From: Eledone cirrhosa
Taxonomy: Eukaryota
Direction of reading: 5' to 3'
DNA length: 64,000 nucleotides
Assembly (NCBI GenBank): GCA_964016885.1
Contig: OZ024741.1
Span: 85,436,001 to 85,500,000, forward strand
In this document: one piece after another, positions 7,605 to 63,100 of the stretch
Layout of the letters: each line of letters starts with the position of its first letter
How positions within the stretch are numbered: position 1 is the first letter of the stretch
Made by a program: the position numbers and the translations under genes
The notes under the pieces: generated by a model
What the model saw: only the letters and a program-made list of their open reading frames with translations
What the model was told of the DNA's origin: nothing
Database searches by the model: none

Positions 7605-8420
<816 letters not shown>

Positions 8421-10069: not shown

Positions 10070-11560
10070 AAACAATACCACAAATTTCACAAGGAAGACA
10101 TTATTAAAAGATTGTCAACATATTTTAGTTTGATGTAAGTAATGTAGAGAATAATAATAATAATATTAATAATAATAATGTCCGTTTACAGTTGTTTCGC
10201 TACTCCATATAATATGCCTGGATCAAATGATTATATATCATTATTGATCTGGTTCAGTTGAAAATAATTAACATAGGTAAAGATAGAACAGCTCATCGGA
10301 ACTTCAAAAGGAATATAAATTAAAATAAGGAAAGAATGTTACATAAATGTAATGTTCCATATATTGGTATTTCACTATGGTGTCCTGGGTATATCAATTG
10401 TCTGCCATAGTCTAGCAGTATTCTTCTGTCGAGGCTGCATTGTGTGAGATCTGCCTATAGGTAACAAGATGGCCGCCAATGGACATATTTACCTTACTAA
10501 TTAGAGGGTGGTTTCAGAGGAAGTAACTCCTCGAGAGATTAGAAATTGTGGGTAGTTTATAGTTAAGTGCTATTTTTTTAATTTTTCAATTGAGAGACAA
10601 TGTAAGGGAGGTAACATATAATTATCTAAGTTAGTTATAGCTATTTAACTTATTAGTAAAAATGGGGCTAGATGACTATGTTGGGTCAAATATTCTGTTG
10701 GCGAAGGAATTAGCCCTTCGACGTTGACAGCTAATAGTTACCTCCGTTCTATCGTTAATCGGTAGAGGTCGTGATAGAGTTATGTAATATGCTTCGGTAA
10801 TACAGAGGTCACAAGATTTTCTTCGTCCATTGAACGGTTGGGCCCTAGCCAAGATATCCCATGTTAGTGAGTGTTCAATGTTGGTTAATTTAAGGTTTTT
10901 AATGAGCCTAGCTAGAGATGTCGAACATCTGTTGTTAGGGGTCTCGGAAGGAAAAGGACTGCGCGTTATAGCGTACCATAAAAGGGTTAGAGGTAGATCC
11001 GATATAGGAGCTGGTATGCGAAGCAGTTTTAACCGTGCACCTATAGACTATGTTGGGTGTCAGGCAATGTCCATTTAGTGGGAATGCATTAGGGTAACGG
11101 CAGTTGCAGTTACTTTTGCGGTTAGTGAGAGTAGGGTTGTTTAACCTAAGCGGTTGGTCAGTGCTAGAAGGATTAGATGGGGGAGGTGTGCTACTAGAGT
11201 AAGTATTGGTGTAGTGGCGTGGTGTATTTGATGGGGGTGGTGGTACCGCGGTGTGGGAGTTATACTGTCTTAGTTTATGATGGTTACTGAATGCGATGTG
11301 GCTAGCTAGGGTTGTGGAGAATGAGATTTTAATGTTATTTTTATTAAAGAGTTTGTAATATCTATGGTGGGGGGGGGGGTTAGATAGGATATAGAAGAAG
11401 CGTTTAGGGATATTAGTGGCTAGATTAGATGAGAACGGGGGGTTAAGCCAGGTGATATTTCTAGGCCTATTCCTTCTAGGGGTTCTAGTGAAGTTGGTAG
11501 GGGCCTTCATAGGGTTATTATTACCTGGGCATTTGTTATTTGTCATCCCATTGATCATTC
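10070..11560 (-). mobile_element. Penelope-like element, 3' fragment (linker, GIY-YIG endonuclease and pLTR), decayed
   Basis: ORF 10935-11558 contains RNITWLNPPFS, CNCR..PLNGHCL and IVYRC...YIGST. Hammerhead-like gtt CCGATGA gct...agc GAAA caactg TA aac at 10184-10302. Bounded by (TA)n. Confidence 0.8.
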
Positions 11561-11562
11561 CT

Positions 11563-11616
<54 letters not shown>

Positions 11617-11618
11617 AG

Positions 11619-11737
11619 ATAAAAATGTACAAAGACCAGAAGTTAGCTGAACAGAGGCAGCAAGAAGAAAGTTATAGACGACGTCTTGCAGAGGTCCAAG
11701 AGGAATTAGAACAACAAAATAAACGAAACTTGGATAG
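11619..11737 (+). CDS. CCDC148: Internal coding exon B (119 nt, phase 0-2): IKMYKDQKLAEQRQQEESYRRRLAEVQEELEQQNKRNLD(R)
   Basis: ccttAG acceptor, GTAAGT donor at 11738, open coiled-coil frame. The terminal AG plus the first A of exon C gives Arg. Confidence 0.75.
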
Positions 11738-15929: not shown

Positions 15930-17340
15930 GTGCGCGCCGTTATGGAAAGCATCCAGCAAATAGCTAACTCCATCCACCAGAGTATTAGAGTTACTATAGA
16001 CTACCCAAGCAAACACCCCAACCATCGATTACCTGTACTAGACACAGAGCTCTGGTTAGATACCATTAATAACAAAAAACAAATCCTCCATTCCCTTTAT
16101 GCCGAACCCATGACTTCCAAATATCTGATCCACTGAAACTCAGCTGTTTCGGACCATACCAAAATCAATATACTGATTGCGGATTTGGTACGAGTGACGA
16201 GAAACGTGTCCCGCATGTGCAACCCCAAAGAACTAGAGAGACACATACAACGCTTCATCCACCGTATGCAGTTCTCTGGTTACAATCAGAGAGATAAAAT
16301 CAGAGTGTATAGAGGAACCAGAACCAAATGGGAAAAAATGGTAAATATGGGAACAAAAATGACACAAATGGGACCTGCCCCTTGTATAGGAGCAAATTTT
16401 AGAATAGAATAGAAAGAACTAGGAATAAGGCTAATAGAATAAACTCATGGTATGATAGCAATAAATACCAGAGTGTAATGTTCATCGATACAACCCCTAG
16501 AGGTGAATTAGCTTACAAATTTAGAAGGGCCCTAGATAAACATAAACTCAATATTAAGATAGTAGAAAGACCAGGTACCTCCATAAAAACACTTATTAGC
16601 AATACATACCTTTTTCAAAGACCTCCCTGTATAGATTAGAAATGTATAATCTGTAAATTAAGCCCCCATATTAACTGTAAAACTAGAAATGTAGTATATA
16701 GCATAAGATGTACTGAAGGACAATGTAGAGATAAAAATATAGTGTACATCGGTGAGACAGCTCGTAGTATAGGGGAACGGATAAATGAACAATGGCGAGA
16801 CCTTCAAGATAGTAAAGAATCATCTGTACTCTACCAACATGCTAAAATAGAACATAAGGGTAAACTAGAGAACATAGAAATTAAAATAGATTCTACACAC
16901 AGAAAAGATGCAATGTTTAGACAAATCACAGAGGTAATAAACATAAATGAACTCCAACCAAAATTAAATAGAAAACATGAATGGAACAGCAACATCACAA
17001 CTTACAATTAAGGACAAAATTAAAACACACACGCACATAGAACAAACGACTAACCAGTAACATGCAAATAAACAAATAAATAAACGAATATAAACACACA
17101 CGGACACCCGGATGTAACACATGCGCAAACTAAGCACACAACACATACACAAAAACAAGATGGCGTAGGACAGAACAAAGGAGATGCACAAAAATAAAGA
17201 AAAGAATCCCCAGTCACTCAAGAGGTCACAGAATGTGTGACGAAAGAACTTTGACAATATATAAACAATCTTCTGGTTGTGGAACCAACCAACCAGCCGG
17301 AAATTTATAAATTCCTAAATTTATAAATGTATTATAATAA
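15930..17340 (+). mobile_element. Penelope-like element, 5'-truncated (RT thumb, GIY-YIG and pLTR), with stops and frameshifts
   Basis: LPVLDTELW, RMQFSGY, CKTRNVVYSIRC and YIGETARSIGERINEQ. Hammerhead-like gtca CTCAAGA g gtcaca/tgtgac GAAA gaac tt tgac at 17213-17255. Confidence 0.85.
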
Positions 17341-17463
17341 ATTGAAGTGAAAGCAACTGGTGCGTGTGTTTCTTATTGGCAACATGACCCTCCCAAAGTA
17401 TAACAATATCGGTTTCAACACACGTTTTCAGATAAAGAATCTTGGTAAACAAATGCAGAAACG

Positions 17464-18054
<591 letters not shown>

Positions 18055-18066
18055 TATATATATATG

Positions 18067-18165
<99 letters not shown>

Positions 18166-20742: not shown

Positions 20743-20826
<84 letters not shown>

Positions 20827-20879
20827 TTTGGAAACCTTGCGCTATTATTTTAAAGTAGTGACTATGTCACTTACTTTTT

Positions 20880-20969
20880 ATTTCAACAAACAAAGGGAGA
20901 TAAGCTGACAGATCTGTTTCATACTGTTGGTAATCATCAGAGCTTAGCACTCGCTTTGTCTGTTGAAAA
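20880..20969 (-). ncRNA. Extended type I hammerhead ribozyme, inverted twin of 21141-21230
   Basis: Reverse complement of the same core at 20901-20946. Confidence 0.75.
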
Positions 20970-21140
20970 TTACAGATGTTGGATTCTTATAGAATTCCTG
21001 TAATAATCAGGAACTGAACGATTGCTGGTCCAGCAAAAATTGAAAATTAGTATTGCTGCTCTGAAATAGCGATGTATACATGAATGTATATATAGTATAT
21101 TTGGCAATATACTGTATGCTTAAGAATCCAACATCTATAA

Positions 21141-21230
21141 TTTTCAATAGACAAAGCGAGTGCTAAGCTCTGATGATTACCAACAGTATGAAACAGATCT
21201 GTCAGCTTATCTCCTTTTGTTTGTTGGAAA
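21141..21230 (+). ncRNA. Extended type I hammerhead ribozyme; predicted cleavage after GUC at 21203
   Basis: taagct CTGATGA ttac caaca gtat GAAA cagatctg TC agctta, with stem I extended by ttttcaatagacaaag/ttttgtttgttggaaa. The first pair of stem II is T-T in this copy. Confidence 0.75.
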
Positions 21231-21928
21231 AAGAAGTGAGTGACATAGTCACTACTTTAAAATAATAGCGCAAGGTCTCAAAAATGTTTTTAATATATAT
21301 ATACATATACTTTGCTATGTATTGAGTACCTTACTTAATGTGGTTACCGCCAGTATTTGACCGTTACTTTATTTTCTTGACCTGGGAAGAGTGAAAATCA
21401 AAGTTGACTTTGAACTCATAACGTACCGAGCCAGAATACATACGGAAGTAGCATTTTATCGGATACCCTATCTGCCAATCATTTACACTTTCTTTTTTCA
21501 CATTTTATTGATGTTTAAAAATATATATTAGATGTAATTTTCCTGTCAAAATCTTTAAAATCATTCCTCTGCTAACACCGGGGCCTGTGATCTCTTTTAT
21601 CCATGGGAAATACTTGGCCTAAAATCTGACTTTGGTGCTGCCAATCCACACACGTACACACACTCAAGCAAGCTCACACATTTATACACTCACACGCAAA
21701 TAAACTCATACAGTCACACACATATACACCCACATGCACTCGTACACAGACACACACAAACGTACACATAGACACACACACATACACATATACACACACA
21801 TACACACACATACACACACACATATTTCTCTCCCTGGATCAGCTCCAAAAATAACACTTTCGGGAAATTATTTTGTGTATTCCAATATAACAGCAGTAGT
21901 AGTAGTAGTGGTTGTAAGGTTGCGTCGA

Positions 21929-27423: not shown

Positions 27424-29017
27424 GAGGAAGAGGGAGAGAGAGAGACATAAGCAAACATAAATATATTGTTACGATTTCGTAAAGGAACCGAATATTATTT
27501 ATATCCTTCGTAAAACAACGGTTTATGTACTAGTAATACTAAAAAATGTATTTCTTCAAAATTTGGAAACACGACAGATTTTTTTACACCTAGTGTATCG
27601 AAATTGCAAAAAAAAAAAAGAATTCTCGCAGCCATATATAAAGAAAGTAAAATCAGAAAGAGACACAATAAAAAAAAATATAAACGAAAGACAAATTGCA
27701 AATCTCACAAATTGAAATTCCTTCATTCTAATGTTCAGCACATTCTGGTTTAGCATCCTCAGTACACCACGGGTAATCAAGAGAAAAACTGAATTCAGTT
27801 CAGGTTCACTAATCAAATTCCACCATATTTCGTTCATTGATTTTCGCAAAGATATTTCCTCAAAATTGCTTCTTTCAAAATAAATACTTAAAAAAAAAAT
27901 CAAAATGATTCTCGTATGTCACAGCAACTTAATCTGTAGCAGTAGGCCAATGATAGTGAAGTTAGTGGTAATGATGGTAGAGTTGGTGTGGGTTATGGTG
28001 TTGGTGTGTTGGTGGTGGTGATAATGGTGGTGCTAGCAGTGGTGATATTGAAAAATACAAAACCAGTGGGCCAATGGTAGTGATTGTGGTGATGTTGAAA
28101 AACAAGCAAAATCAATGGTAGTGGAGATAGTGACGATGATGATGATGATGGTGGTGGTGGTGGTGGTAGAGATGAGAGTAGTGATTTTGTTGAAAAATAA
28201 CAAAATAGTGAGTCAGTGGTAGTGGTGATAGTGATGTTGATAGTAGTGCTGATAGGGAGGATGTTGTTGGTGATGCAGTGAGGAGGAGGAGGATGTTTGG
28301 TTTTCCAAAAGTCAACTACAACGACTGATGATGGGAGGGAGGCTGTTGATGGTGCTGGCGGAGGAGTGGGGATAAGAGAAAAAAGGATAAAAGAAAAGAT
28401 ATTGGTATTTTAATAATATACAGAAATTGTCAACTGCTTTATTTTCTGTGATCTTCGCGAGGCAGACATGGCTAAGTTGTAAAGAAGTTCGCTTTTCAAT
28501 CATCTGGTGCGACATTCGATCATTCGATCTTATTGCCTCAGGTAGACCCAAGCCTTGCGAGGAAAATTGGGGAGACAGAAACTGTGGAAAGAAACTCGTC
28601 AGATTGTACTATGCCTGTAATTTAAAGGTCCAGCCCTTATCACATATTAAGTCACGCTGATTTTGCCTCATAAGTACGTTGGTGATTAATTAACATATAT
28701 ATTAAAAAGTGCGGTAATGTACGATAAAGTATATAAGCCCATCAAATATATGTTCCTTTGTGATTAATTTAAATATATGTTCCTTTGTGGTTATTCTGAT
28801 GAGGGCCCAATTAGATCTGAAATTCGATTAAAGGTGTTTATCATTTGTTTCAATTTACTGGGAAATTCCTATATTCTGGCTTGTTTACATGCCTACATAT
28901 TAAAAATATACGCATGTATTTAGACATTGGTGCATTCCCTGTTACCCACTCTGCAGGTGGGTTTAACTTTATTGTACAGGTTTAACGTTATTGTACAGTT
29001 CGGCTGCCATCACATTT

Positions 29018-33838: not shown

Positions 33839-35134
33839 ATTGGAATTTCGTATTTCAGAAGAAATACAGTATGTTTAAAATAAACATTTAGAGAGCCGTA
33901 GCTGTGCCAAAACACCAGCGACTAACGTCGTCTGGCGGTGTCCAGAAAAAGCAAAGAGAGACAATCGTGGATGCGCATTTCGAACTGAAATGATTCTCAT
34001 TAGCACGATCCCTCCCACTCTTGCAACTGCTGGAATAATAATTTTTTAAAATGTTTAAATTATACCATACAGTTTCAATACAACTGAACGCAGAAAATAG
34101 TTCTTTTATATTCGATCTTGTGAAAAGTTTCTTTCCAAATCCCACGTGTTGAGAATATCAGTCAGATTCAAATATATCACGCCAAGCATTCAATGTATCA
34201 TTGATCGATCTCTTCCTTATCTACCATTAGTAATATCACGGTGACATTATCGATATTTTAAGAATGACAAGGTTCAACATTTTTAGACAGTTTTATTAAA
34301 GGAGAGAGGCGGCTAATTGGTAGAACTGTTAGAACGTCGTATAGAATGATTTGCGGCATGCGGTCTGAGGTCTGACTTCAAATCCCACCGAAGTCAACTT
34401 TGCCTTTCATGCTTTCGTCGATAAAAAAAGTACCAGTCCAGTTCTGGGATCGAATTTTCCTCAATATCTCTTTCCTATTTACTCTCTCTCTCTCTGGAAG
34501 AAATTGGTTGCATTCCGACCCAGAGAGGGTTGTACTTTGCCAGGTTTCAAAACCCCCTACGATTCCACCAGGAGTTAAGGGCCCATGGTAACGTGTCAAC
34601 CCTGGTTGGACAATCATTTTGTCAAGAGCGTTCAAGCTATATATAGAAGGGGCGCCGGGGAATGAATAGGAGCACCAGATGGTAAGTGTGTGACAGGAGG
34701 GGGTAGTGGAAGAAAAGGGCAAAAAATACACATCATCAGTTCTTCATAATACTGTTACTTATAGTTATTCAATAAATGCCAAAATACAATTTATAAAAAA
34801 ATATTATTAAAATTTTATTTTCAATATATAATATTTTTCTTTGTTGATCGAACAACTGAATGCTCACCGTCGTAGCCAATGAAGGATTCATTATCTTAAG
34901 GCTTGTAACAGGGATCCACTTTTTCTGATGAAGCCATAGTGTCATACGACGTATTTTAGGCACTTTAAACCTCTCCACGTCTGAGCACAGCCGATTTCTT
35001 CCACAGAAAAAGAAAGAGACACAGAGAAAGGAAGAATGAGATATAGAGAAAGAATTGGAACCAGCAGCCAACCCCCGTCCCGCAAATTACAACCTATTAC
35101 CTTAAAATGGGATTATATATATATACACACACAC

Positions 35135-35184
<50 letters not shown>

Positions 35185-35492
35185 ACCGTGACAAGTGGAG
35201 AGATGCTAAATAGGAGCTGTTCAACCCTTGCAAGCAGAAAAAAGCGGACATAAAATGATGATGATGATATGGATATTCATACTTATATATTATATATCTA
35301 TCTGTGTGTGTAGAGAGAGAGAGGAACTCAGGAAAGTCAATGGCCATCCAATAATGCGTATATATGTTCATTTGTATATATATATATAAATGTATATATA
35401 GTGTATTTTGCAATATACTGTATGCTTAATTAAAAGCATTTTGAAGACCTTACGCTATTGTTTTAAAGTAGTGACTATGTCATTTACTTCTT

Positions 35493-35584
35493 TTTTCAGC
35501 AAACAAAGGGAGATAAGCTGGCAGATCTCTGTTTCGTACTGTTGGTACTCCTCAGAGCTTACCACTCCCTTTGCCTGCTGAAAA
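35493..35584 (-). ncRNA. Extended type I hammerhead of the same family, in a repeat copy at ~35385-35600; cleavage triplet mutated to GCC
   Basis: taagct CTGAGGA gtac caaca gtac GAAA cagagatctg CC agctta; outer stem ttttcagcaggcaaagggag/ctccctttgtttgctgaaaa. Confidence 0.7.
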
Positions 35585-35698
35585 TTATGAATCCAGCATT
35601 CATAATTTTATATATACAGCATTCTAATAAATATTGCCTGTATGTATACAATTTGCGAGGACACACTTTATATATATATATATATTTATACATATGTA

Positions 35699-36378: not shown

Positions 36379-36443
36379 AAGGATATATTGCCACGATCAT
36401 TCTGAGGAAAGATGCGGGAAAGGCAGAAGTACCGATGTCTAAC

Positions 36444-36487
<44 letters not shown>

Positions 36488-36617
36488 GCTACTGTACGTC
36501 TGTATACATATATGTATGTACGTATACATACATACTTACATTTAAGTAAGTGCCGTACTAAGAGTGAGAAATGAAATTTCGTTTCATTCTATTCTCTCTC
36601 TATATATATAAATATAT

Positions 36618-36942
36618 ATATACGATATTAATAAATGGAAACTATATTTATAAAACCATATTTATTTCATTATACATATTTCAGGGATACCAAATTAAGA
36701 TATGGTATGCCTTCATCAGACAAAATACAATATATAAACAGTTTTATAAATAATTTTGACGTACCCAATTAGATGCAACCATTATTTTTGGAAGGGTACG
36801 TCAAAATTATTTATAAAACTGTTTATATATTGTATTTTGTCTGATGAAGGCATACCATATTTTAATTTGGTATCCCTGAAATATGTATAATGAAATAAAT
36901 ATGGTTTTATAAATATAGTTTCCATTTATTAATATCGTATAT
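36618..36942. repeat. ~149 bp inverted repeat with a 27 nt spacer; each arm carries a minimal hammerhead motif
   Basis: Arms 36618-36766 and 36794-36942, one mismatch seen. tttgt CTGATGA agg-catacca..tggtat-ccct GAAA tatgta TA atgaa at 36836-36894(+) and 36666-36725(-). Confidence 0.8.
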
Positions 36943-37024
36943 CTACTCCAAAAACTTGTCGAGTGCTTTATATCAGTTATAAAATATTTACTTGTTGTAT
37001 CCCAACAATTTTAAATAGAACTTT

Positions 37025-37096
<72 letters not shown>

Positions 37097-37639
37097 TATA
37101 TTCCTTTTCGTCTATCTTCCTATTTCTTCTCTCTCCTGTATGTCTATCATCCAACGAAAGACTAATGTTGGAAAAATTATGTCCCTTCTACGCTTATATT
37201 ATGTATTGTATAGCGTGATCATAGCGTGATCATTGACTGAAAACAAGTTGGTTATGGCTGGAACACTTTTGACCATATATCTATTCGGTCAAATCAAAAT
37301 TCATTTCTTTCAGGCTGAAATTCATTTATTGTTTTTAAATTGAATTTTGTTGTTTGTTATTTTCCTCCATGCCAGCAAGCCCCCACTTCACCCACCCACT
37401 ACAACAACCACCTGAAAAATAAAACCCCACACTAAGAGAAAAAAATAGCTGGCGAACGACTTAATATGGTGAACACGATAAAATGGATTAATCGAAATTT
37501 TGTTCATAGCAAACATTTTCTCTTTTAGATAACAGAATACAGTTGAATTACAAATAAACATACATTTCAGCACGCCAAACACATGCTATTTCCTTAATCC
37601 TTGTTTCTACATTTGGCACAAGACCAGCAATTTGTAAAG

Positions 37640-41969: not shown

Positions 41970-42509
41970 GCAATCAACTCCAGTACTTGACTTGTACTTT
42001 TTTATTGACCTCGAATGAAGAAAAACAAAGTTTACCTCAGCGGGATTTGAATTCAGAGCGCAGAGAGATGAAATGAATACGACAAAGAATTCTATTTGAT
42101 GTCCTAATGACTCTGCTAATTTACCGCATAATAGTGGTTTCTTATATAGGCACAAGGCCAGTAATTTTGAGGGAGGGGAAAGTCGATTAAATCGATCCCA
42201 GTGCATCACTGGTACTTCATTTTATCGATCCCCGTAAGGATGAATGGCAAAGTTAACCTCGGCGCGATTTGAATTCAGATCATAAAGGGACGTAACTCTA
42301 TGCTGCAAAGCATGGCGTCCGACCCTCTACCGATACTGCCAATCCACCGCCCTACTGATAATAGTTGTATATCATTATAGATACGAAAAGGGGCGGTGGA
42401 TTGGCAGTATCGGTAGAGGGTCGGACGCTATGCTTTGCAGCATAGTTACGTCCCTTTACGATCTGAGTTCAAATCCCGCCGAGGTTGACTTTGCCTTTCA
42501 TCCTTACGG
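41970..42509. mobile_element. Family 1 SINE cluster including a head-to-head pair (42135-42352 on -; 42390-42509 on +, cut by the gap)
   Basis: Near-identical inverted heads about 37 nt apart. Confidence 0.85.
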
Positions 42510-42709
42510 NNNNNNNNNNNNNNNNNNNNNNNNNNNNNNNNNNNNNNNNNNNNNNNNNNNNNNNNNNNNNNNNNNNNNNNNNNNNNNNNNNNNNNNNNNN
42601 NNNNNNNNNNNNNNNNNNNNNNNNNNNNNNNNNNNNNNNNNNNNNNNNNNNNNNNNNNNNNNNNNNNNNNNNNNNNNNNNNNNNNNNNNNNNNNNNNNNN
42701 NNNNNNNNN
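42510..42709. other. Assembly gap (200 N)
   Basis: Run of N. Confidence 1.
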
Positions 42710-44600
42710 ATGTTATCAGCCACCTTGAAGATCTCCAGGCTTTTGGTGATCCAAGAATGAGGCACCATGTCAAATGCCTTTTTGTAGTCTATCCATCCCA
42801 TGGCAAGACCAGTGTGTCTCCTCTTGCAATTCCTCATTACCATCTTATCAATAAGTAACTGGTCCTTTGTACCACGTGACTTCTTTCGGCATCCTTTCTG
42901 TTCGTCCGGTAACAAGTTGTTTGTGTGGAGGTGATGGTAGATTTCCTCAGACATAATGCTTGTCAACAGTTTCCACATTACGGACAGACATGTGATAGGT
43001 CTATAGTTGGTAACATCATTACCCTTGATTCGGTCTTTCATTATCAGAACTGTGGTACCTTTTGTCAACCACTCTGGTACCTCACCTGACATCAAGCAGT
43101 CATTGAATATGGTTGTCAGTTTCGGGTGGAGGGATGTTATATTTTTAATCCAATATCCCTGCACACCATCTGGGCCTGGTGATTTCCAGTTGGTTAGTTT
43201 TTTGGCCTGCCCCTTAAGAGTTTCAACTGTGATACTCAAATCAGTTTGTTGGTGTGCCTGTTCACCAATTTCCTTCTGTACTGTCTCAATCCACACTGCT
43301 TGGTCATTATGTTTAACATCCTGCTCCCATATTCCTCTCCAGAGTGTTTTAGTTTGTTCCGCCTCAGGGATCAAGTCGTTGCCTCTTTCTTTCCCTTCAA
43401 GCTGTCCAAACAGCATCTTCTGGTTGTTGTCGAACATGCGGTTCTGTCTATACTGGCTGACTCTGTTCTCGTATCGCCTGATTTTTGCACTCTTTGCTAC
43501 AATGCATTGCTTCAGTTCCTCTATGATAATATTTAGCTTTTTCCTCCTAGTTTTGTACTTTATTTCCAGTCTATTTTTAGTGTCTATGTTTTTTAGTGTC
43601 CCATTCAGTAGGGACTCAAGGTTTCCAATGTCATTTCTCATTTCCCTGATTTGACCACTCAGTCGTTTTTTCCACCAAGGCTCTGCTCTTTCTTGTCTGT
43701 TGTTTCCTCTCGCTTTTATACCAAGTAGTTTCCTCACCGTATTTGCTGTTGCTTTGAGGATATTGTTGCACTGGTGAAGGCTCCTCGCCTCAAGGTATGG
43801 GATGACTTTGTTTACCTTAGCTGCTGTTTCTTTTAACTTTTTCCTGTCTACAAATCTTAGGTTCATAGGTCTCCCACTATCATTGTTCAATTCATCTACC
43901 ACTAAGTTTAGGATATCAACCAAATCTTGTCCTAGCCCATCAGCATTCATCTCCTCAGTGGCCGTATCTCTGTTCCAGGTATTATTTATCTCAGCATTCA
44001 GATCATTGTCTGCTTCGAGTGGTTCCTCCGTTCTCTCGGCCTCTTCACCTTCATTTCCCACTGGCTCGTTTGCCTGGCATACTCCACTCTCCATCTCCAA
44101 GCTAATCTCTCTGCTCAGTTCCTCCAGTTCCAGCTCGCTTATCCACCCATTAGTTCTTATTACCCGAGCCTGCCCGGCCAATTTTTGTTCATCTAATTTA
44201 AATAGACCAATCTCGTTCCAGATGTTATGGATCCGTTTCCTATAGCCTTTCTCCTTGGGGTTACTCTTCAGGTAACATTGCATAACAGTTCTATTCAATT
44301 CTTTCGTCCAGTTGGTTCTGGTCCCTTTCCTTCTTCTTCTTCCTCCGACACCAGCAGTATTTGGGTGACAGCCAGGTCCCTGCTGCTGAGCCAGGGAGCA
44401 CCTGTTGGGTGAGAGTCTGTCACATGACATTCTAGTCGCCATTTCACCGTTATTCGAACTGTTTAGGTTCGACATTTAAACACTCTTATCGAGGATTGGC
44501 GAATGTATGGTTACATAACCACCGGTGAATTCATGGTCTCCGGTGGTTCCGTCACTCCACGTGATTTTTGTGTGACATTATCACGCTGTAGACGAACATA
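42710..44600 (-). mobile_element. R4/Dong-like non-LTR retrotransposon, 5' half with an uninterrupted ORF from ATG 44475 to the gap
   Basis: About 588 codons open. NWKSPGPDG, NYRPITCL, EQKGC, RGTKDQLLIDK and WIDYKKAFDMVPHSW are R4-type RT motifs. Confidence 0.9.
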
Positions 44601-45984: not shown

Positions 45985-48900
45985 CCAATTCAATGATGTT
46001 CCAGAACAATATAAAAGAGATAATTGACAATTTAGGTTCTGGAACAAAAAAGATAATTGGCAATAAGGGCAGGGGCCCCAGGTTATCACAGCCTGGGTCC
46101 ACTCGTCATCGTGCCATTGTAATAGAGCCAAACAAGGCATTTAGTCTTGGCTGCTGGAACGTACGGACGCTGCTTCACAGGGATTCCTTTGAGCGTCCTG
46201 AACGAAGGATCGCTCTTGTTGCAAAGGAGCTTCGACGTTACGATCTTGACATCGTGGCTTTATCTGAGACGAGGTTAGCTGGAGATGGTCATCTTACAGA
46301 ATTTTGTGGAGAATATACATTCTTCTGGAAAGGAAGAGATGAAGGAACCAGAAGAGAGACTGGGGTAGGATTTGCTGTTAAGACTGTTCTTGTGAATAAA
46401 TTAGAAGAATTCCCAGTAGGGATTAGTGAGCGTCTTATGTCCATGAGAATTCCGCTGGACAAAGGAAGATATGCGACCCTGGTGAGTGTGTATGCTCCAA
46501 CTATGAATTGTCATGCCTTGAAAGGTGTTTTAAGAAATATCCCTCAGGCAGACAAAGTCATCGTGCTTGGTGACTTTAATGCTAGAGTGGGTAGGGATTT
46601 TAACACATGGAATGTAATCGGAAGGCATGGGGTGGGAAAGTGTAACAACAATGGTATGCTCCTGCTGCAGATGTGTGAGGAGCTGGATCTCTGTGTTACC
46701 AACACCATGTTCCAACAAAAGAACAAATTCAAGACCACATGGATGCATCCTGCATCTAAGGAATGGCATCTTTTGGACTACGTCCTAGTCAGGATGTGTG
46801 ACAGACAGGATGTGCAGTGTGTTCGTGCTCTTCGTGGAGCTGAGTGCTGGACGGACCACCGCCTGGTACGCGCAAAAGTGAAACTAATCACTAAACGTAA
46901 AATCGGGGTCCTGGTGTTGCCCTGCCCAAAAGATTGAATGCTGCTCGTCTTAAGGATAAAAATGTGAAGAGAACATTGGAAGAAGAGATGCAGGCTGCAG
47001 ATCATGGTGAGGATTGGTCGACCCTTAAAAAGTCGGTTTATGATGTAGGCAGGCGTGTTCTGGGTTGTTGCAGAGAAAACATCAGGACTGGTTTAATGAG
47101 AATGATGTACATAGAGAAGACTTGTTGGCTGATAAGAGGCGTGCTCTGTCACGCTACTTGACGGCAAAACCACAGGAGAGGAATACGTTGCATGAGGAAC
47201 TCAAGGATGTAAAATCTTAGGCGGAGTCTTTCTCAGATGAAGGATCAGTGGTGGAGTGAGAAGGCTGATGAGATACAAACTGCGTCAGATTCCAATAACA
47301 CAAAGCTGTTGTACAGTCTCTTGCGTGAGGTTTATGGACCGTCTTCTTCTCTGGTGACACCGCTTCGCAGCAAGGATGGCAAAGAACTTCTTCGTGACTC
47401 ACAAGGAATTCTACGAAGGTGGCGAAAGCACTTTGATGATCTTTTGAATCAGCCGTCTGTCGTCAGTGAAGATTTCCTCAATCTCATTCCAGAAAATCCT
47501 GTGAAAGTAGCTCTCACAGTACCTCCGACGCTTGTGGAGGTTGCAGTGGCTATCTCGAAGCTGAACAGTGGAAGGTCTCCAGGTATGGATGGCATACATT
47601 CTGAGCTCCTACAATATGGTGGTGAGAGACTCCTGCAACATCTTCACTCTTTGTTTGGCAGGATATGGGCTAATGAATCTGTACCTGAGGACTGGAGAGA
47701 TGCAGTAATGGTAGTCTTGTACAATGAAAAGGGTAACAGGAATGATTGTGGGAACTACAGAGGTATATCATTGCTTTCTGTCGTAGGGAAAGTTTTATGT
47801 AGAGTGCTTCTGGACCGCCTGCTGACACACATTTCAGATTGTGTTCTTCCTGAAAGTCAATCTGGTTTTCGTGCTGGACGCGGCACTACTGATATGATCT
47901 TCTCAGCTAGACAGCTCCAGGAGAAGTGCATGGAACAAGGTTTGGATCTGTATCAGGTTTTTGTCGATCTAACAAAAGCTTTCGATACTGTTAACAGAGA
48001 TGCATTATGGAAGGTTCTCCAGAAACTGGGTTTCCCTGATAAGTTCCTTGCTTTAGTTAGGTCGTGCCATGACGACATGAAGGTTTGGGTTAATGTCGGA
48101 GGTAACATGTCGGAGCCTATCTCAGTAAAAAATAGAGTGAAACAGGGGGATATTCCAGCACCGACCCTGTTTGCCATATACTTTGCAATGGTTTTCTGTA
48201 TTGCATTCAGGAATTGCGAGCATGGTGTTTACATCCGATATCGAACCTCAGGCAGGATATTTAACATCAGGCGCTTTGCTGCAAAGACAAAAGTATTTAC
48301 ATCAATCATAAGAGACCTCTTGTATACAGATGATTGCCATCTTGTAGCGCACACAGAGAGTGATATGCAGCACATTATGAATGCATTTTCTGACGCTTGC
48401 ACTGCCCTAGGATTGACTGTCAGTCTCAAGAAAACCGGCGTCATGTACCAACCTGCCCCTGGTAAGCAGTACACTGAACCAAATATCTATGTGTATGGTA
48501 AAGGACTTGGAGTGGTTGATCAGTTTGTCTACCTGGGAAGCACTGTCAATCGATACAGCAACTTTGACAGTGAAATCTCACTTAGGATTAGGAAAGCAAG
48601 TGATGCTTTCGGAAAGCTAGAAAGGCGACTCTGGGGTCGGCGAGACATATGCAGGAGGACAAAGGTAAAGGTGTACAAGGCATGTGTGCTCTCTTGTCTT
48701 CTTTATGCCTGCGAGACCTGGGTCACATATCGACACCACCTTAAGCAATTGGAGCGTTTCCATCAGATGTGTCTCAGACGGATCCATGGCGTTCACTGGA
48801 GAGACCACATCAGTGATGTCGATATTTTGGAAAGCTCTATGTGTGACAGTATAGAAGCTCTTGTGTTTAAGCAACGACTCCGTTGGAGTGGTCACCTTGC

Positions 48901-49830
48901 CAGGATGAAGGATTCTAGAATACCAAAACAACTCTTTTGTGGAGAGTTGGTTAAAGGAAAACGACCGCTACATAAACCAAAAAAGAGGTATAAGGATTCC
49001 TTGAAAGCCTCTTTGAAAGACGCTAACATCTCTGCTGATACATGGGAAAATATTGCTGCTGATCGTAATAAATGGAGAAAGACTGTATATGAGGGAAAAG
49101 TTGCCTTTGAGGCATCTCGAATCGCATACGAGAAAGTAAAGCGGGATGTGAGGAAGGGCATTGCTGTTGCACTTCCAGACGGCGAGGGTCCTCTTATGGC
49201 GCTGACATGCAGCGTCTGTGCGAGACTCTGCATGTCAGCCTAAGCATGTCAGTCTGTGCGAGACTCTGCCTAAGCAAAGCTGGACTCGAAAGTCATCTTC
49301 GCAGTCATAAAGTAAGACCAGTGGTTGACTACCAGGCTGCTGTTGGAGATACTACTCATCATGCTTGCCAAACATGTGGTAGAGAATGTAAATCAGCAGG
49401 AGGGCTCAAGCGACATGCAAAAGTACATGAACTCCAACCACAGCCGGCTATTCCCAGTGAATGTTTTGGTTGCCGACTCTGTGCAAGACATTTTAGATCA
49501 TTGGCTGGGCTAAAAAGCCACATTCGATCGCAGCGCTGTTAGTTGCTATCGTGTGTGTGTGTGTGTGTATAGATATGTTTATGTGTGTGCGTGTGTGTGT
49601 ATATATATGTATATGTATATTATTATTGTTGTTGTTGTCGTTATTATTATTATTGTTGTTATTATTATTATTGTTATTAGTGTATATGTGTGTATGTATA
49701 TATATATATGTGTATATATATGTATGTGTGTATATATATATATATATATTTCTTTTTTTTATTTTTATTTTTTATTTTTTTCTCGTGCAATGGCCATACT
49801 CGATAACGAGGGGGCAGCCATCATCATGTA
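45985..49830 (+). mobile_element. Near full-length RTE-clade LINE (APE, RT and C-terminal C2H2 fingers), disrupted
   Basis: APE motifs WNVRTL, LSETR, GDFNARVG and TDH. RT motifs NYRGISLLS, FVDLTKAFDTV, KQGD and YTDD. Frameshifts and a stop at ~46900-47220, a local duplication at ~49205-49270, and a 3' tail ...gcagccatcatcatg after a microsatellite insertion. Confidence 0.92.
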
Positions 49831-50307: not shown

Positions 50308-50689
50308 TATATGCTATTACCATACAGCGGTATTCAATCATGTTTCCATACAATACACGCATATATTCACATATGCATATGTGTGTCTATGTGTGTGCGT
50401 GTATATCTATATGTGTGGGTGTGCGCGCATGTGGGAGCCTGTGCGTGTATGTATTTAGGCTTTATGAGCGTATAAAAGTACAATGCTATATTTTGTGCTA
50501 AAGGCAATGAAATGTAATAACAGAAAAAAATCGATGGGAATGGGAAGCAAAAACAAAAAGGAGAGACATCATTAAATTATTGAGTTAAACGGAATTGGAG
50601 ATAAAATTTATGATATGTAGGTGAGATAATTATGTAAAGAAGGGAAGGAGAATGAAGGGTGGAATAAATAAATGAATATATGCATATGC

Positions 50690-51411
<722 letters not shown>

Positions 51412-51505
51412 GCGCGTGTGTGTGAAAAGTAAACGGAATAAACACAATAGACGATGAAATTAAATGAAGATGTATTTTAGTTTCACACTTAATATAGTAG
51501 GAAAG

Positions 51506-60185: not shown

Positions 60186-63100
60186 GTTCTTCTGGTTTTA
60201 TAATTTCACAAAGTTTTACCAATAGAGAGAGAGTCGGTTTCTAACATAGATACAAGACTCTCTCATTGGAATTTACACAACATCAACTAGGCAGTTATGT
60301 ATGTATGCATGCATGTGTAGATATGGATGTTATTGTATGTGTGGATGTGTATATTTTGAGTTGTATGTGTGCATGTGTATATGCTTTGTATCTGTACATG
60401 TGTATATGCAGTTATTAGATGCAAAATTTTTGGAATGTTTTACATATTTTTACTGTTCCATTAATGGATTGTACTTGTAATTTCCTAACTAGTTGTGTTC
60501 TTTCTGTTCCTGTGAAGCCTAGCTTCTCAAGATTTGTATTGAGGCAGTTACTAACATATCCCAGTGCCCCAATAATCACAGGCATAAATCTGAAGGTGTA
60601 ATCAGGGTGGAGTATCTGCAGATTTCTCATCAGTTCTGCATAAATATTCTCCCTTTCACTAATCTTTGATATATTGGCATCTGCTGGGCAGTTAATTTCC
60701 ACTACTGTGCATGATTACTTCTGCCTGTCTCATATCATAATATCTGGTCTGTTATGCCTGCATTTTATTGGGGTTTTTACTGGAACATTCCACCAGTACT
60801 CTTTCATATTATGTACATGGATGTCTTCCACATTGTTGTAGCTTTTAATGTGTTTATTATCGGGGCTATCTTTTTTACGAATTGCATTGTACAGTGTTTT
60901 GGCCAGTACATCATGCCTCATAGGTAGATAGTACCGCGATGACATCTTTGGACAACTGCTGATGACATGGGTGATATCCTCGATGTTAGTTCTGCAGAGT
61001 CTGCACTTGTTATTACATCTAGGTGTTTTGCCTGCATCCCTATCTCTTTTGTGAATCAGGTATTTCGTGCTAATCTCCTGTTCCTGGATTGCAAAAGCGT
61101 ATCCTTCAAAGTGGGAGCCAATATAGCGGTTGTTGGTCCTAGATAGACTACTTTCCTTATCTATATTACTCTCACTCTGGAGCTTCCTGGCAACATATCC
61201 AAGCATGATTTTTTGCTGATAGGCATGCAGTTTTTCATCCATGGATTCACTGCGATACTACTGAGCGACATCCCTGGGTGTGAGTTTTTGATTATCACAC
61301 AGAGAATATCTCTCGAAGAGTTCCTTCCCAACTCTCATGATCTTATCTGTTTCATGCAGGTAGACTTGCTCGAGAAACGGGCTCCTACGCTTCGAGGTTC
61401 GTAGATATTGTCGGAGAGATATGATGCGACATTCAAATGTTGTCTGGACTGATGCTAGGCCTCTGCCTCCCTGCTTACGTTTCAAGTAAAGGCGGTCTAT
61501 GTCACTGTTGAGGTGGAAGTTTCCGGTGTTGTTTAGTATTTTTCGAGCACCAACATCAACTTCTCGGATTTCGTCTACCGTCCAATTGAGTATTCCAAAC
61601 GTTGGTGTTAGGACAGGCACAGCAAACACATTGTAGGCCACTGTTTTATTTTGCGCAGAGTGTTCCGATGACCAGATCTTTCTTAATCGGTGTAGTATTC
61701 CCTGGTTACGCGTTCCTTATTACAGATACCATTATAGGATATGGTCTCGTCTATCCCCATGTATCTGTAGCAGTCCTCATCAGATATCGGTGAAACAGTT
61801 AGGCCATTGATGACAATGTTGCTAGATTGGGTTGTTGTTTTTCCCCGCTTTACAGTCATGTATGAGCATTTATCTTGGCCAAACTCCATTCCTATATCCT
61901 TTGAGAACGTTGTAACCAGGTCAAGATTTTTCTTCATCCCATCCATGTTCTTGGCATAGAGTTTCAGATCGTCCACAAAGAAATTATGGGTTAGGTTCGT
62001 ATTTCTGTCCTCCTGTGAGCCAATGATGTATCCCTCACATTTCTTGAGCAGAAAGGACAAGGGGTTTAAGGACAAGGTGAATAATATCACATAGAGACTG
62101 TCCCCCTGAAATATACCCCTGCAATATTTTATTTTATCAGTGAAAATAGAGTCCTCCTTCTCTGTCTTTAACCTTAGGATAGTAGCCCAAGAAGAAGACA
62201 GCCTCTCTATGGCTCTGATAATAATGTCTGGGACTTTAGCAAGTTGGAGGGCCTCTATCATCCAAGAGTGGGGAACAGAATCGAAAGCTTTCCTGTAGCC
62301 CAGCCAAACTGTAGCCATATTCCTCCTAAGTTGTCGCAACTCCGACATCGCATTTTTGTTGATTAGGAGTTGTTCAGCACATCCCCAAACCCCGTTCTTT
62401 CCAGCTGCTTGTTCATCTGTGATGATGTTATTATTTTCACAGTGATCTTGGAGGAATAGGTCCAGGCAGGCTGTATACATCTTATACATCAGATTCTGGC
62501 ATGCAATGGGTCGGTAGTTTTTTGCCAAGTGGGTGTCTTTGTTCTTGGGGACCAGTAATGTTTGTGCTAATGTCAACCATTCTGGTATAAGTGTATCTAC
62601 CTTAAGAACTTGTTAGTAGAGGTCAGTAAGATACCTCCGATACAATATCAGTTTTTTTGTACCAGTAGCCGACAATCATGTCTCTTCCTGGTGTTTTCTT
62701 ATCTTGGAGTTTTCCTATCACAGTCTCAAGAGTACCCTCACTTATTTCGTATGTTTTTGTTGTAGTGTAGGAGCAATAGTTCTTTGGGATTTCTCTTAGC
62801 CACACTGCATCTTGGTTGAAATTCTTCTTTTTACCCCATATTTTGCTCCAAAAGGAATCTATGTCTTTCTGGGATGGGGCCTCAGTGACACTTATTATTT
62901 TGTTCTTCATATCTCTATAGACTGATGTTTGGTTTCGTCTGAATCTTTTATTAAGCACTTTTCTCTCATCTACCTTCTTCAGGTATCGGCGTTTTTCGCT
63001 AGCAGCTCTCAATTCTTGTTGAAGGGTGATCAGCTTATATTGAAGACTTCTGGTTCTACCAGACATCGTCTCTATTTTATTTCTCACTCTTTGTTGGTGA

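Follow-up and report, generated by a model that had tools for sequence, protein, structure and literature searches.

A non-coding hammerhead repeat of Eledone cirrhosa, probably copied from RNA circles by a Penelope-like enzyme

A 64-kb stretch of the Eledone cirrhosa genome (the window; assembly GCA_964016885.1, contig OZ024741.1, positions 85,436,001 to 85,500,000) contains three loci built from one short repeat. What kind of element leaves such copies, and how were they inserted? A first-pass annotation had suggested a non-autonomous retrozyme, copied from a self-cleaved circular RNA, possibly by a Penelope reverse transcriptase. We find that the three loci share a non-coding monomer of 316-317 nt, as had been claimed and as homology comparison bears out. 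Across subfamilies the monomer measures 310-317 nt with a GC content of 33-39%, and when the monomers are repeated endlessly, no frame stays open for longer than 46-59 aa. All 3' ends at the three loci point outward into (TA)n.

The subfamily A locus consists of a minus-strand arm of about one monomer (20818..21120, 303 nt) and, head-to-head with it, an inverted plus-strand arm of 173 nt (21121..21293), 94.7% identical to it over 189 nt. Both end about +91 from the cleavage site, the minus arm abutting (TA)n at 20745-20817 and the plus arm beside a short (TA)n. It had been read as a single permuted copy, but is a full minus-strand monomer (21120 to 20818) joined to a plus-strand partial (21121-21293). 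The differing start points reported for the three loci are in fact the 3' ends of minus-strand arms, which cluster at two points genome-wide; this locus is atypical in that both its arms end outside them. At 7.8 kb, subfamily B likewise forms an inverted pair. Its minus arm (7771..8016) runs from 8016 to about 7771 and ends at the second, or "tail", point (about +168), and its plus arm (8017..8417) runs from 8017 to about 8417 and ends at the first point (about +134), each beside (TA)n. The 316-nt period (8017/8333) and the 1.3 units described for this locus are true of the plus arm. The third locus, subfamily C, is a 5'-truncated minus arm (35388..35587) with its 3' end at the first point, extended to 35609 by a short fold-back stub. 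None of the three loci has two ribozymes on the same strand, and all are about 4-7% diverged from their subfamily majority.

Both the repeat and its type I hammerhead hold up. Each of the five arms contains a whole hammerhead, with three helices, an open helix I and the core CUGANGA / GAAA / NUH, which is intact in three of them. The hammerhead at 20901..20946 (minus strand; CUGAUGA, GAAA, GUC) has a palindromic stem III, a stem II of 3 bp on a U.U pair, an extended stem I (~20880-20970) and a predicted cut between 20907 and 20906. A second intact one lies at 21164..21209 on the plus strand, with a predicted cut after 21203. In the 7771..8016 arm (~7930-7975, minus) the core carries U3:A8; the 8017..8417 arm (~8245-8291, plus) has a damaged core, GUAA for GAAA; and the 35388..35587 arm (~35514-35561, minus) has the canonical G10.1:C11.1 pair and GCC for GUC at the cut site. 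A complete hammerhead had earlier been assembled by combining copies. The type I fold holds, but every arm already has it whole and the composite mixes two subfamilies.

The checks proposed for this ribozyme included an Rfam search and a covariation analysis. The first, run on the whole window and on the 20817 locus alone, returned no hammerhead family match. For the second we aligned 30 copies from four subfamilies, the structure being drawn from those same sequences. Paired states fill 94.1% of the hammerhead cells, and 18 of the 25 ribozyme pairs show double changes, a score that none of 500 shuffles reached; slid controls gave 1-6 pairs. Because the copies fall into four related subfamilies, the cell counts overstate the number of independent changes. 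Double changes affect 6/6 pairs of stem I and 8/12 of its extension, where compensatory change had correctly been noticed. A15.1:U16.1 and C15.2:G16.2 are present in all 30 copies, and the 10.1:11.1 pair is standard in 11/30 and mostly a mismatch. The core pair is C3:G8 in 25/30 and U3:A8 in the remaining five, all of subfamily B; U3:A8 is a natural variant described from Schistosoma in the available part of PMC4209133. Covariation and the intact-core match counts given below suggest that the ribozyme is under selection. Three further minimal hammerhead-like motifs lie in unrelated repeats of the window, at 28790 (+), 29597 (-) and 15323 (-), and the 29597 type turns up again in the random genome sample.

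The additional hairpins proposed for the monomer fared unevenly. Double changes occur in 4/36 of their pairs, a result matched or beaten by 111/500 shuffles. All four lie in the CAGUAUAUU/AAUAUACUG hairpin, whose loop differs by subfamily (GCCA, GCAA or UUCG); in the alignment, the perfect forms of ttgctgg/ccagcaa and ttcctg/caggaa are private to the 20817 copy. Circular folds of the monomers give z scores of -8.1, -9.3 and -5.0 (40 shuffles each) and are thus highly self-paired, and the antisense strand folds about equally well. At 21034-21047 (minus strand), AAUUUUUG is followed by a hairpin, a combination that we take to resemble an Sm-binding site; subfamily D has AAUUUCUG. The sole Rfam echo for this region is SmY, with an E value of 2.9, far below threshold.

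The repeat is abundant in the 3.0 Gb searched. First-look DNA searches gave 2,671 candidates for A, 3,543 for B and 2,102 for C, and a strict pattern gave 1,209 exact intact-core ribozyme matches for these subfamilies and 0 for the reversed control. Two loci turned up in 59 evenly spaced stretches totalling 590 kb, which extrapolates to ~10,000 loci genome-wide (Poisson range roughly 1,200-37,000); given this density, the window is richer than average. Subfamily D, found outside the window (G000:C1:5388708-5392668 and loci L234-L265), adjoins two surveyed loci, is 67-68% identical to A and B, and has the same two 3' ends. Its ribozyme 31-mer has 4,249 exact matches genome-wide and its reversed control 0. 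Sequence of A and D is present at very high summed depth in three sequencing runs of unrecorded kind, all from one sample, which may be the one that yielded the assembly; this depth does not bear on expression. We also observed two distant hammerhead repeat families, E and F (window ~33840-34035, minus; L120:7560-8180; L266-L295), which likewise end at two points. Both carry ATGCAAAT, an octamer motif, and a CTCF-like motif; the core of F is UUGAUAA. All of A-F have in common a segment immediately before the first 3' end, a candidate recognition element for a helper.

Where copies begin and end bears most directly on how they were made. We surveyed 125 arms at 82 loci, left from 90 after the removal of 8 that overlapped or were duplicates, using queries that favoured ribozyme-spanning arms; three arms belong to subfamily D, and positions are numbered from the cleavage site. 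In total, 112 of the 125 arms end in two narrow zones ~30 nt apart, 76 of them between +122 and +150 and the other 36 between +160 and +175. At the first point the aligner overruns by ~8 nt into (AT)n, and the true position is near +130 to +134. The 5' ends, by contrast, are spread round the whole monomer, with none at +1 to +5. Fixed termini had been named in advance as evidence against a circular template: the 3' ends are indeed fixed, but the 5' ends are variable and cross the cleavage site. Head-to-head arrangement characterises 39 of the 82 loci, one locus is tail-to-tail and 42 have a single orientation. Among the 39 inverted pairs, 26 have one end zone per side; the inversion point is different at every locus, the two ends lying ~30 nt apart. 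Arms of A, B and C reach at most 2.2 units, and 10/125 carry two or more hammerheads in tandem. Target-site duplications are mostly hidden in (TA)n; visual inspection shows one of 9 bp at L258, and at L235 and L253 the flanks have longer units in common.

Two 3' ends with one per side, head-to-head inversion and an AT-rich target are the marks of Penelope mobilisation. An inverted 5'-truncated copy and a 30-40-bp tail at one end have been described for Penelope-like elements in the available text of 10.1101/2021.04.23.441226 and PMC3846280. Random circular permutation was rejected, since the 3' ends cluster at two fixed points, as was mirror-image fold-back, since the 5' ends of the two arms differ freely; a MITE reading was also considered and rejected. 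A seeming cluster of 5' ends at +87 was caused by a 4-nt gap in the query and disappeared with a better reference.

Subfamily D is probably still active, judging from its sequence. Its copies are dispersed head-to-head arrays with exact 310-nt spacing, and all 81 complete units from 12 fetched loci measure 310 nt, with 8 distinct sequences among them. Hundreds of these palindromic arrays, nearly unmutated and up to ~6 kb long, are scattered through the genome. We compiled haplotypes for 30 arrays, of which 20 were picked for carrying A92G or A276G. Arms in this set reach 18.8 units, 56/61 end at the two points, and (TA)n flanks both sides in 23 of 27 two-armed loci. By eye, both flanks repeat the same interrupted (TA)n unit several times at L234, L235, L239, L248, L251, L253 and L264, as if the target had been reiterated during insertion. 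The shorter arms of A, B and C may reflect the collapse of old arrays, or a stronger stem III that opens the circle sooner.

The 30 D arrays comprise 17 haplotypes, mostly pure across both arms. Fifty-eight variants occupy every unit of their array, in both arms where two exist, including the unselected A164T (20/20 units), A241G (19/19), T146C (6/6) and T53C (6/6). A variant fixed in all 20 units on both arms and absent from the rest of the 30 arrays implies a bottleneck of one unit, and we infer that a ligated monomer would provide it. Another 53 variants are confined to a single unit, and only two unselected ones recur (C29A and C6T). Of 22 variants present in some units, most arose through the merging of two neighbouring insertions; after separation, eight remain, in seven arrays. 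One of these, at L262, lies on the matching unit from the primed end of both arms, a pattern that a multimeric template or later gene conversion fits better than does one monomer circle. Sharing between arms is also detectable in 38 older pairs, where 25 rare variants are common to both arms and 232 are on one arm; by arithmetic estimate, fewer than one shared variant is expected by chance.

Our main reading, to which we assign a probability of about 0.7, is that the repeat is a non-coding retrozyme whose transcript likely self-cleaves, circularises and is copied into cut (TA)n by a Penelope-like enzyme. A hammerhead-bearing transcript would cleave itself into a 310-317-nt monomer, which would then be ligated to a circle, by analogy with the RtcB-type ligation described in the available part of PMC7229834. 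A Penelope reverse transcriptase-endonuclease would cut both strands of AT-rich DNA, and each strand would prime one cDNA, the starts being the two fixed points inside the RNA. Both steps have a parallel in vitro: the Anolis Poseidon Penelope protein cleaves AT-rich DNA on both strands and extends each of them, and its reverse transcription begins at two sites within the RNA, which bound the tail (PMC11167929). The two cDNAs would share one circle, each going round it 0.2-19 times, and would join at their 5' ends through short microhomology. We favour a circle because the variable 5' ends cross the cleavage site, multi-unit arms are seamless and haplotypes are pure within arrays. The first-pass proposal of a non-autonomous, hammerhead-bearing, Penelope-mobilised and probably circle-templated element thus finds support in the ends, the covariation, the haplotypes and a chimeric locus described below, and the three loci of the window are older copies from the proposed process. 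The fullest form of this reading has somewhat better than even odds in our judgement: a Penelope enzyme copied RNA circles made by the ribozyme, through target-primed reverse transcription in rolling-circle mode, and the genome records this freshly as two fixed start points, up to 19 turns and kilobase palindromes that each fix one RNA variant, with a candidate helper and at least six related ribozyme subfamilies in succession.

Which element might supply the enzyme? The repeat itself has no ORF for reverse transcriptase plus GIY-YIG, as an autonomous Penelope-like element would. Truncated remnants of two abundant Penelope-like families lie in the window, at 16640-17470 (+; 32,535 first-look candidates genome-wide) and 10676-11642 (-; 65,536), and the terminal repeats of both end in (TA)n. 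Copies of the 16640-17470 family stop at one or the other of two points, again against (TA)n, and have a head-to-head, one-tail layout like that of the repeat. A CX4CxxC motif precedes its GIY-YIG, which would make it Neptune/Nematis type by the available account in 10.1101/2021.04.23.441226. A 791-aa Penelope-like ORF drew no match in Pfam. For a Penelope-like ORF from this genome, the best named relative is an Octopus vulgaris protein (64%). We detected no significant sequence common to the monomer and the 3' repeats of the 16640-17470 family (30 loci), of its 47-79% relatives or of the 10676-11642 family (30 loci), and family F has a Penelope ORF at 0/30 loci.

At one of the 42 single-orientation loci, a near-complete Penelope-like ORF and a subfamily B arm meet head-to-head, with nothing between them. 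The 3' ends of this chimera both lie in (TA)n, and neither end has a tail. Its coding element has ~60% protein identity to the 16640-17470 family. A coding Penelope-like element of this genome, at L180, has the same layout as the repeat. A chimera of this kind would be expected if a single cut were primed on two different RNAs, and later deletion between two neighbours could also yield it. The window also contains long, mostly (TA)n-rich near-palindromes (17466-18151, 36441-37106 and 50689-51422) and remnants of reverse transcriptase ORFs with RVT_1 matches, LINE-type by appearance (42469-44475, minus; 47213-49243, plus; 61683-62612, minus).

Three other explanations were weighed. The same Penelope parasite could have used as its template a multimeric transcript of a tandem array that stayed linear and uncleaved; the ribozyme would then do no more than trim transcripts, and gene conversion would purify the arrays. 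We regard this as unlikely, though it has precedent: uncleaved RNA was the main substrate of the one Penelope tested in vitro, the Anolis element, for which hammerhead cleavage was not needed (PMC11167929). The eight partial D variants would suit it, including the one that the two arms of L262 carry in corresponding units, and D cleavage may be slow because stem III is weak (1-2 bp). That stem is palindromic, however, a form reported to cleave as dimers in the available part of PMC4209133, and a 19-unit transcript would contain 19 ribozymes. New variants fill all units of both arms in young arrays that are 99.4-100% identical, which argues for a one-unit bottleneck, and the near-absence of recurring single-unit variants also speaks against a linear template.

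A far less probable source is a long coding Penelope outside the sampled families, with the copies as its 5'-truncated terminal repeats (pLTRs). All end features match Penelope pLTRs, but the monomer runs back into itself upstream of the ribozyme for up to 18.8 units, 5' ends are scattered over its whole length, and a Penelope ORF occupies only one of 42 5' flanks, inverted there. The ribozyme also has a canonical 6-bp stem I and a 3-4-bp stem II, whereas pLTR motifs are described with a 4-5-bp stem I and a 7-8-bp stem II in the available text of PMC4209133. To a DNA-level element, whether a MITE-like foldback or a satellite spread via extrachromosomal DNA circles with the hammerhead as a relic, we give the least credence of all. 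The 20817 locus does look MITE-like, its terminal inverted repeats being 173 bp long and lying at TA, and DNA circles can produce palindromic tandem arrays. Against this, the inversion point varies by locus, the two ends differ by ~30 nt, and catalytic-core covariation with G.U-tolerant stems points to selection on RNA.

Earlier publications describe non-LTR retrozymes of animals and propose a link to Penelope (PMC7229834; 10.64898/2026.07.22.740005; PMC7761336), and the available parts of these sources permit comparison with the repeat. As in PMC7229834, it is a low-GC non-coding unit of the 150-450-bp class with tandem copies, a canonical type I hammerhead with palindromic stem III and a highly self-paired predicted circle, and it co-occurs with Penelope-like elements; axolotl HHR_Amex2 shares the U.U pair at the base of stem II. 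Animal retrozymes are described there as tandem arrays or monomers and, in PMC7761336, are reported without a motif indicating a helper, whereas the repeat forms head-to-head palindromic arrays with two fixed 3' ends of Penelope type. They have RNA data, while the repeat is known from genome sequence alone. In the available text of Li et al. 2026 (10.64898/2026.07.22.740005), Xenopus retrozymes have pLTR homology, of which we found none with the families sampled here, and only one of nine dimers cleaved in vitro. The species named in these accessible parts are coral, mussel, axolotl, vertebrates and insects, with no cephalopod. A literature search over openly accessible main texts listed no cephalopod retrozyme, and no account of tail-type ends or array-pure haplotypes in retrozymes.

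With endonuclease-positive Penelope-like elements, as far as their accessible descriptions go (10.1101/2021.04.23.441226; PMC11167929; PMC3846280), the repeat shares partial tandems, AT-rich or (TA)n targets, and the head-to-head inverted 5'-truncated copy with a 30-40-bp tail at one end only. Unlike them, it has no ORF, its unit closes on itself, its hammerhead is canonical rather than minimal, and its arms reach 19 units. The Chlamys clade (MRC1 of Chlamydomonas) is reported to lack hammerheads in the available part of 10.1101/2021.04.23.441226, and its non-autonomous parasites share 3' sequence with their helper; the repeat differs in having a selected ribozyme and no sequence found in common with the sampled Penelope-like families.

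A retrotransposon that moves retrozymes with the circle as template has been proposed rather than shown in the available text of PMC7229834 and PMC7761336, and Li et al. 2026 (10.64898/2026.07.22.740005), in its accessible part, calls the mobilisation mechanism unresolved. Insertions that bear both the Penelope tail signature and single-template haplotypes make this model testable. Since D is almost unmutated, its 310-nt RNA, its two start points and the candidate helper could be used in the published Penelope in vitro assay. Such a system would offer DNA writing based on Penelope a small cargo of natural origin and would explain one source of large palindromes in the genome. The repeat appears to add a new member to the non-LTR retrozymes of animals, and its genomic record bears with unusual directness on the rolling-circle copying by Penelope that has been proposed for them.
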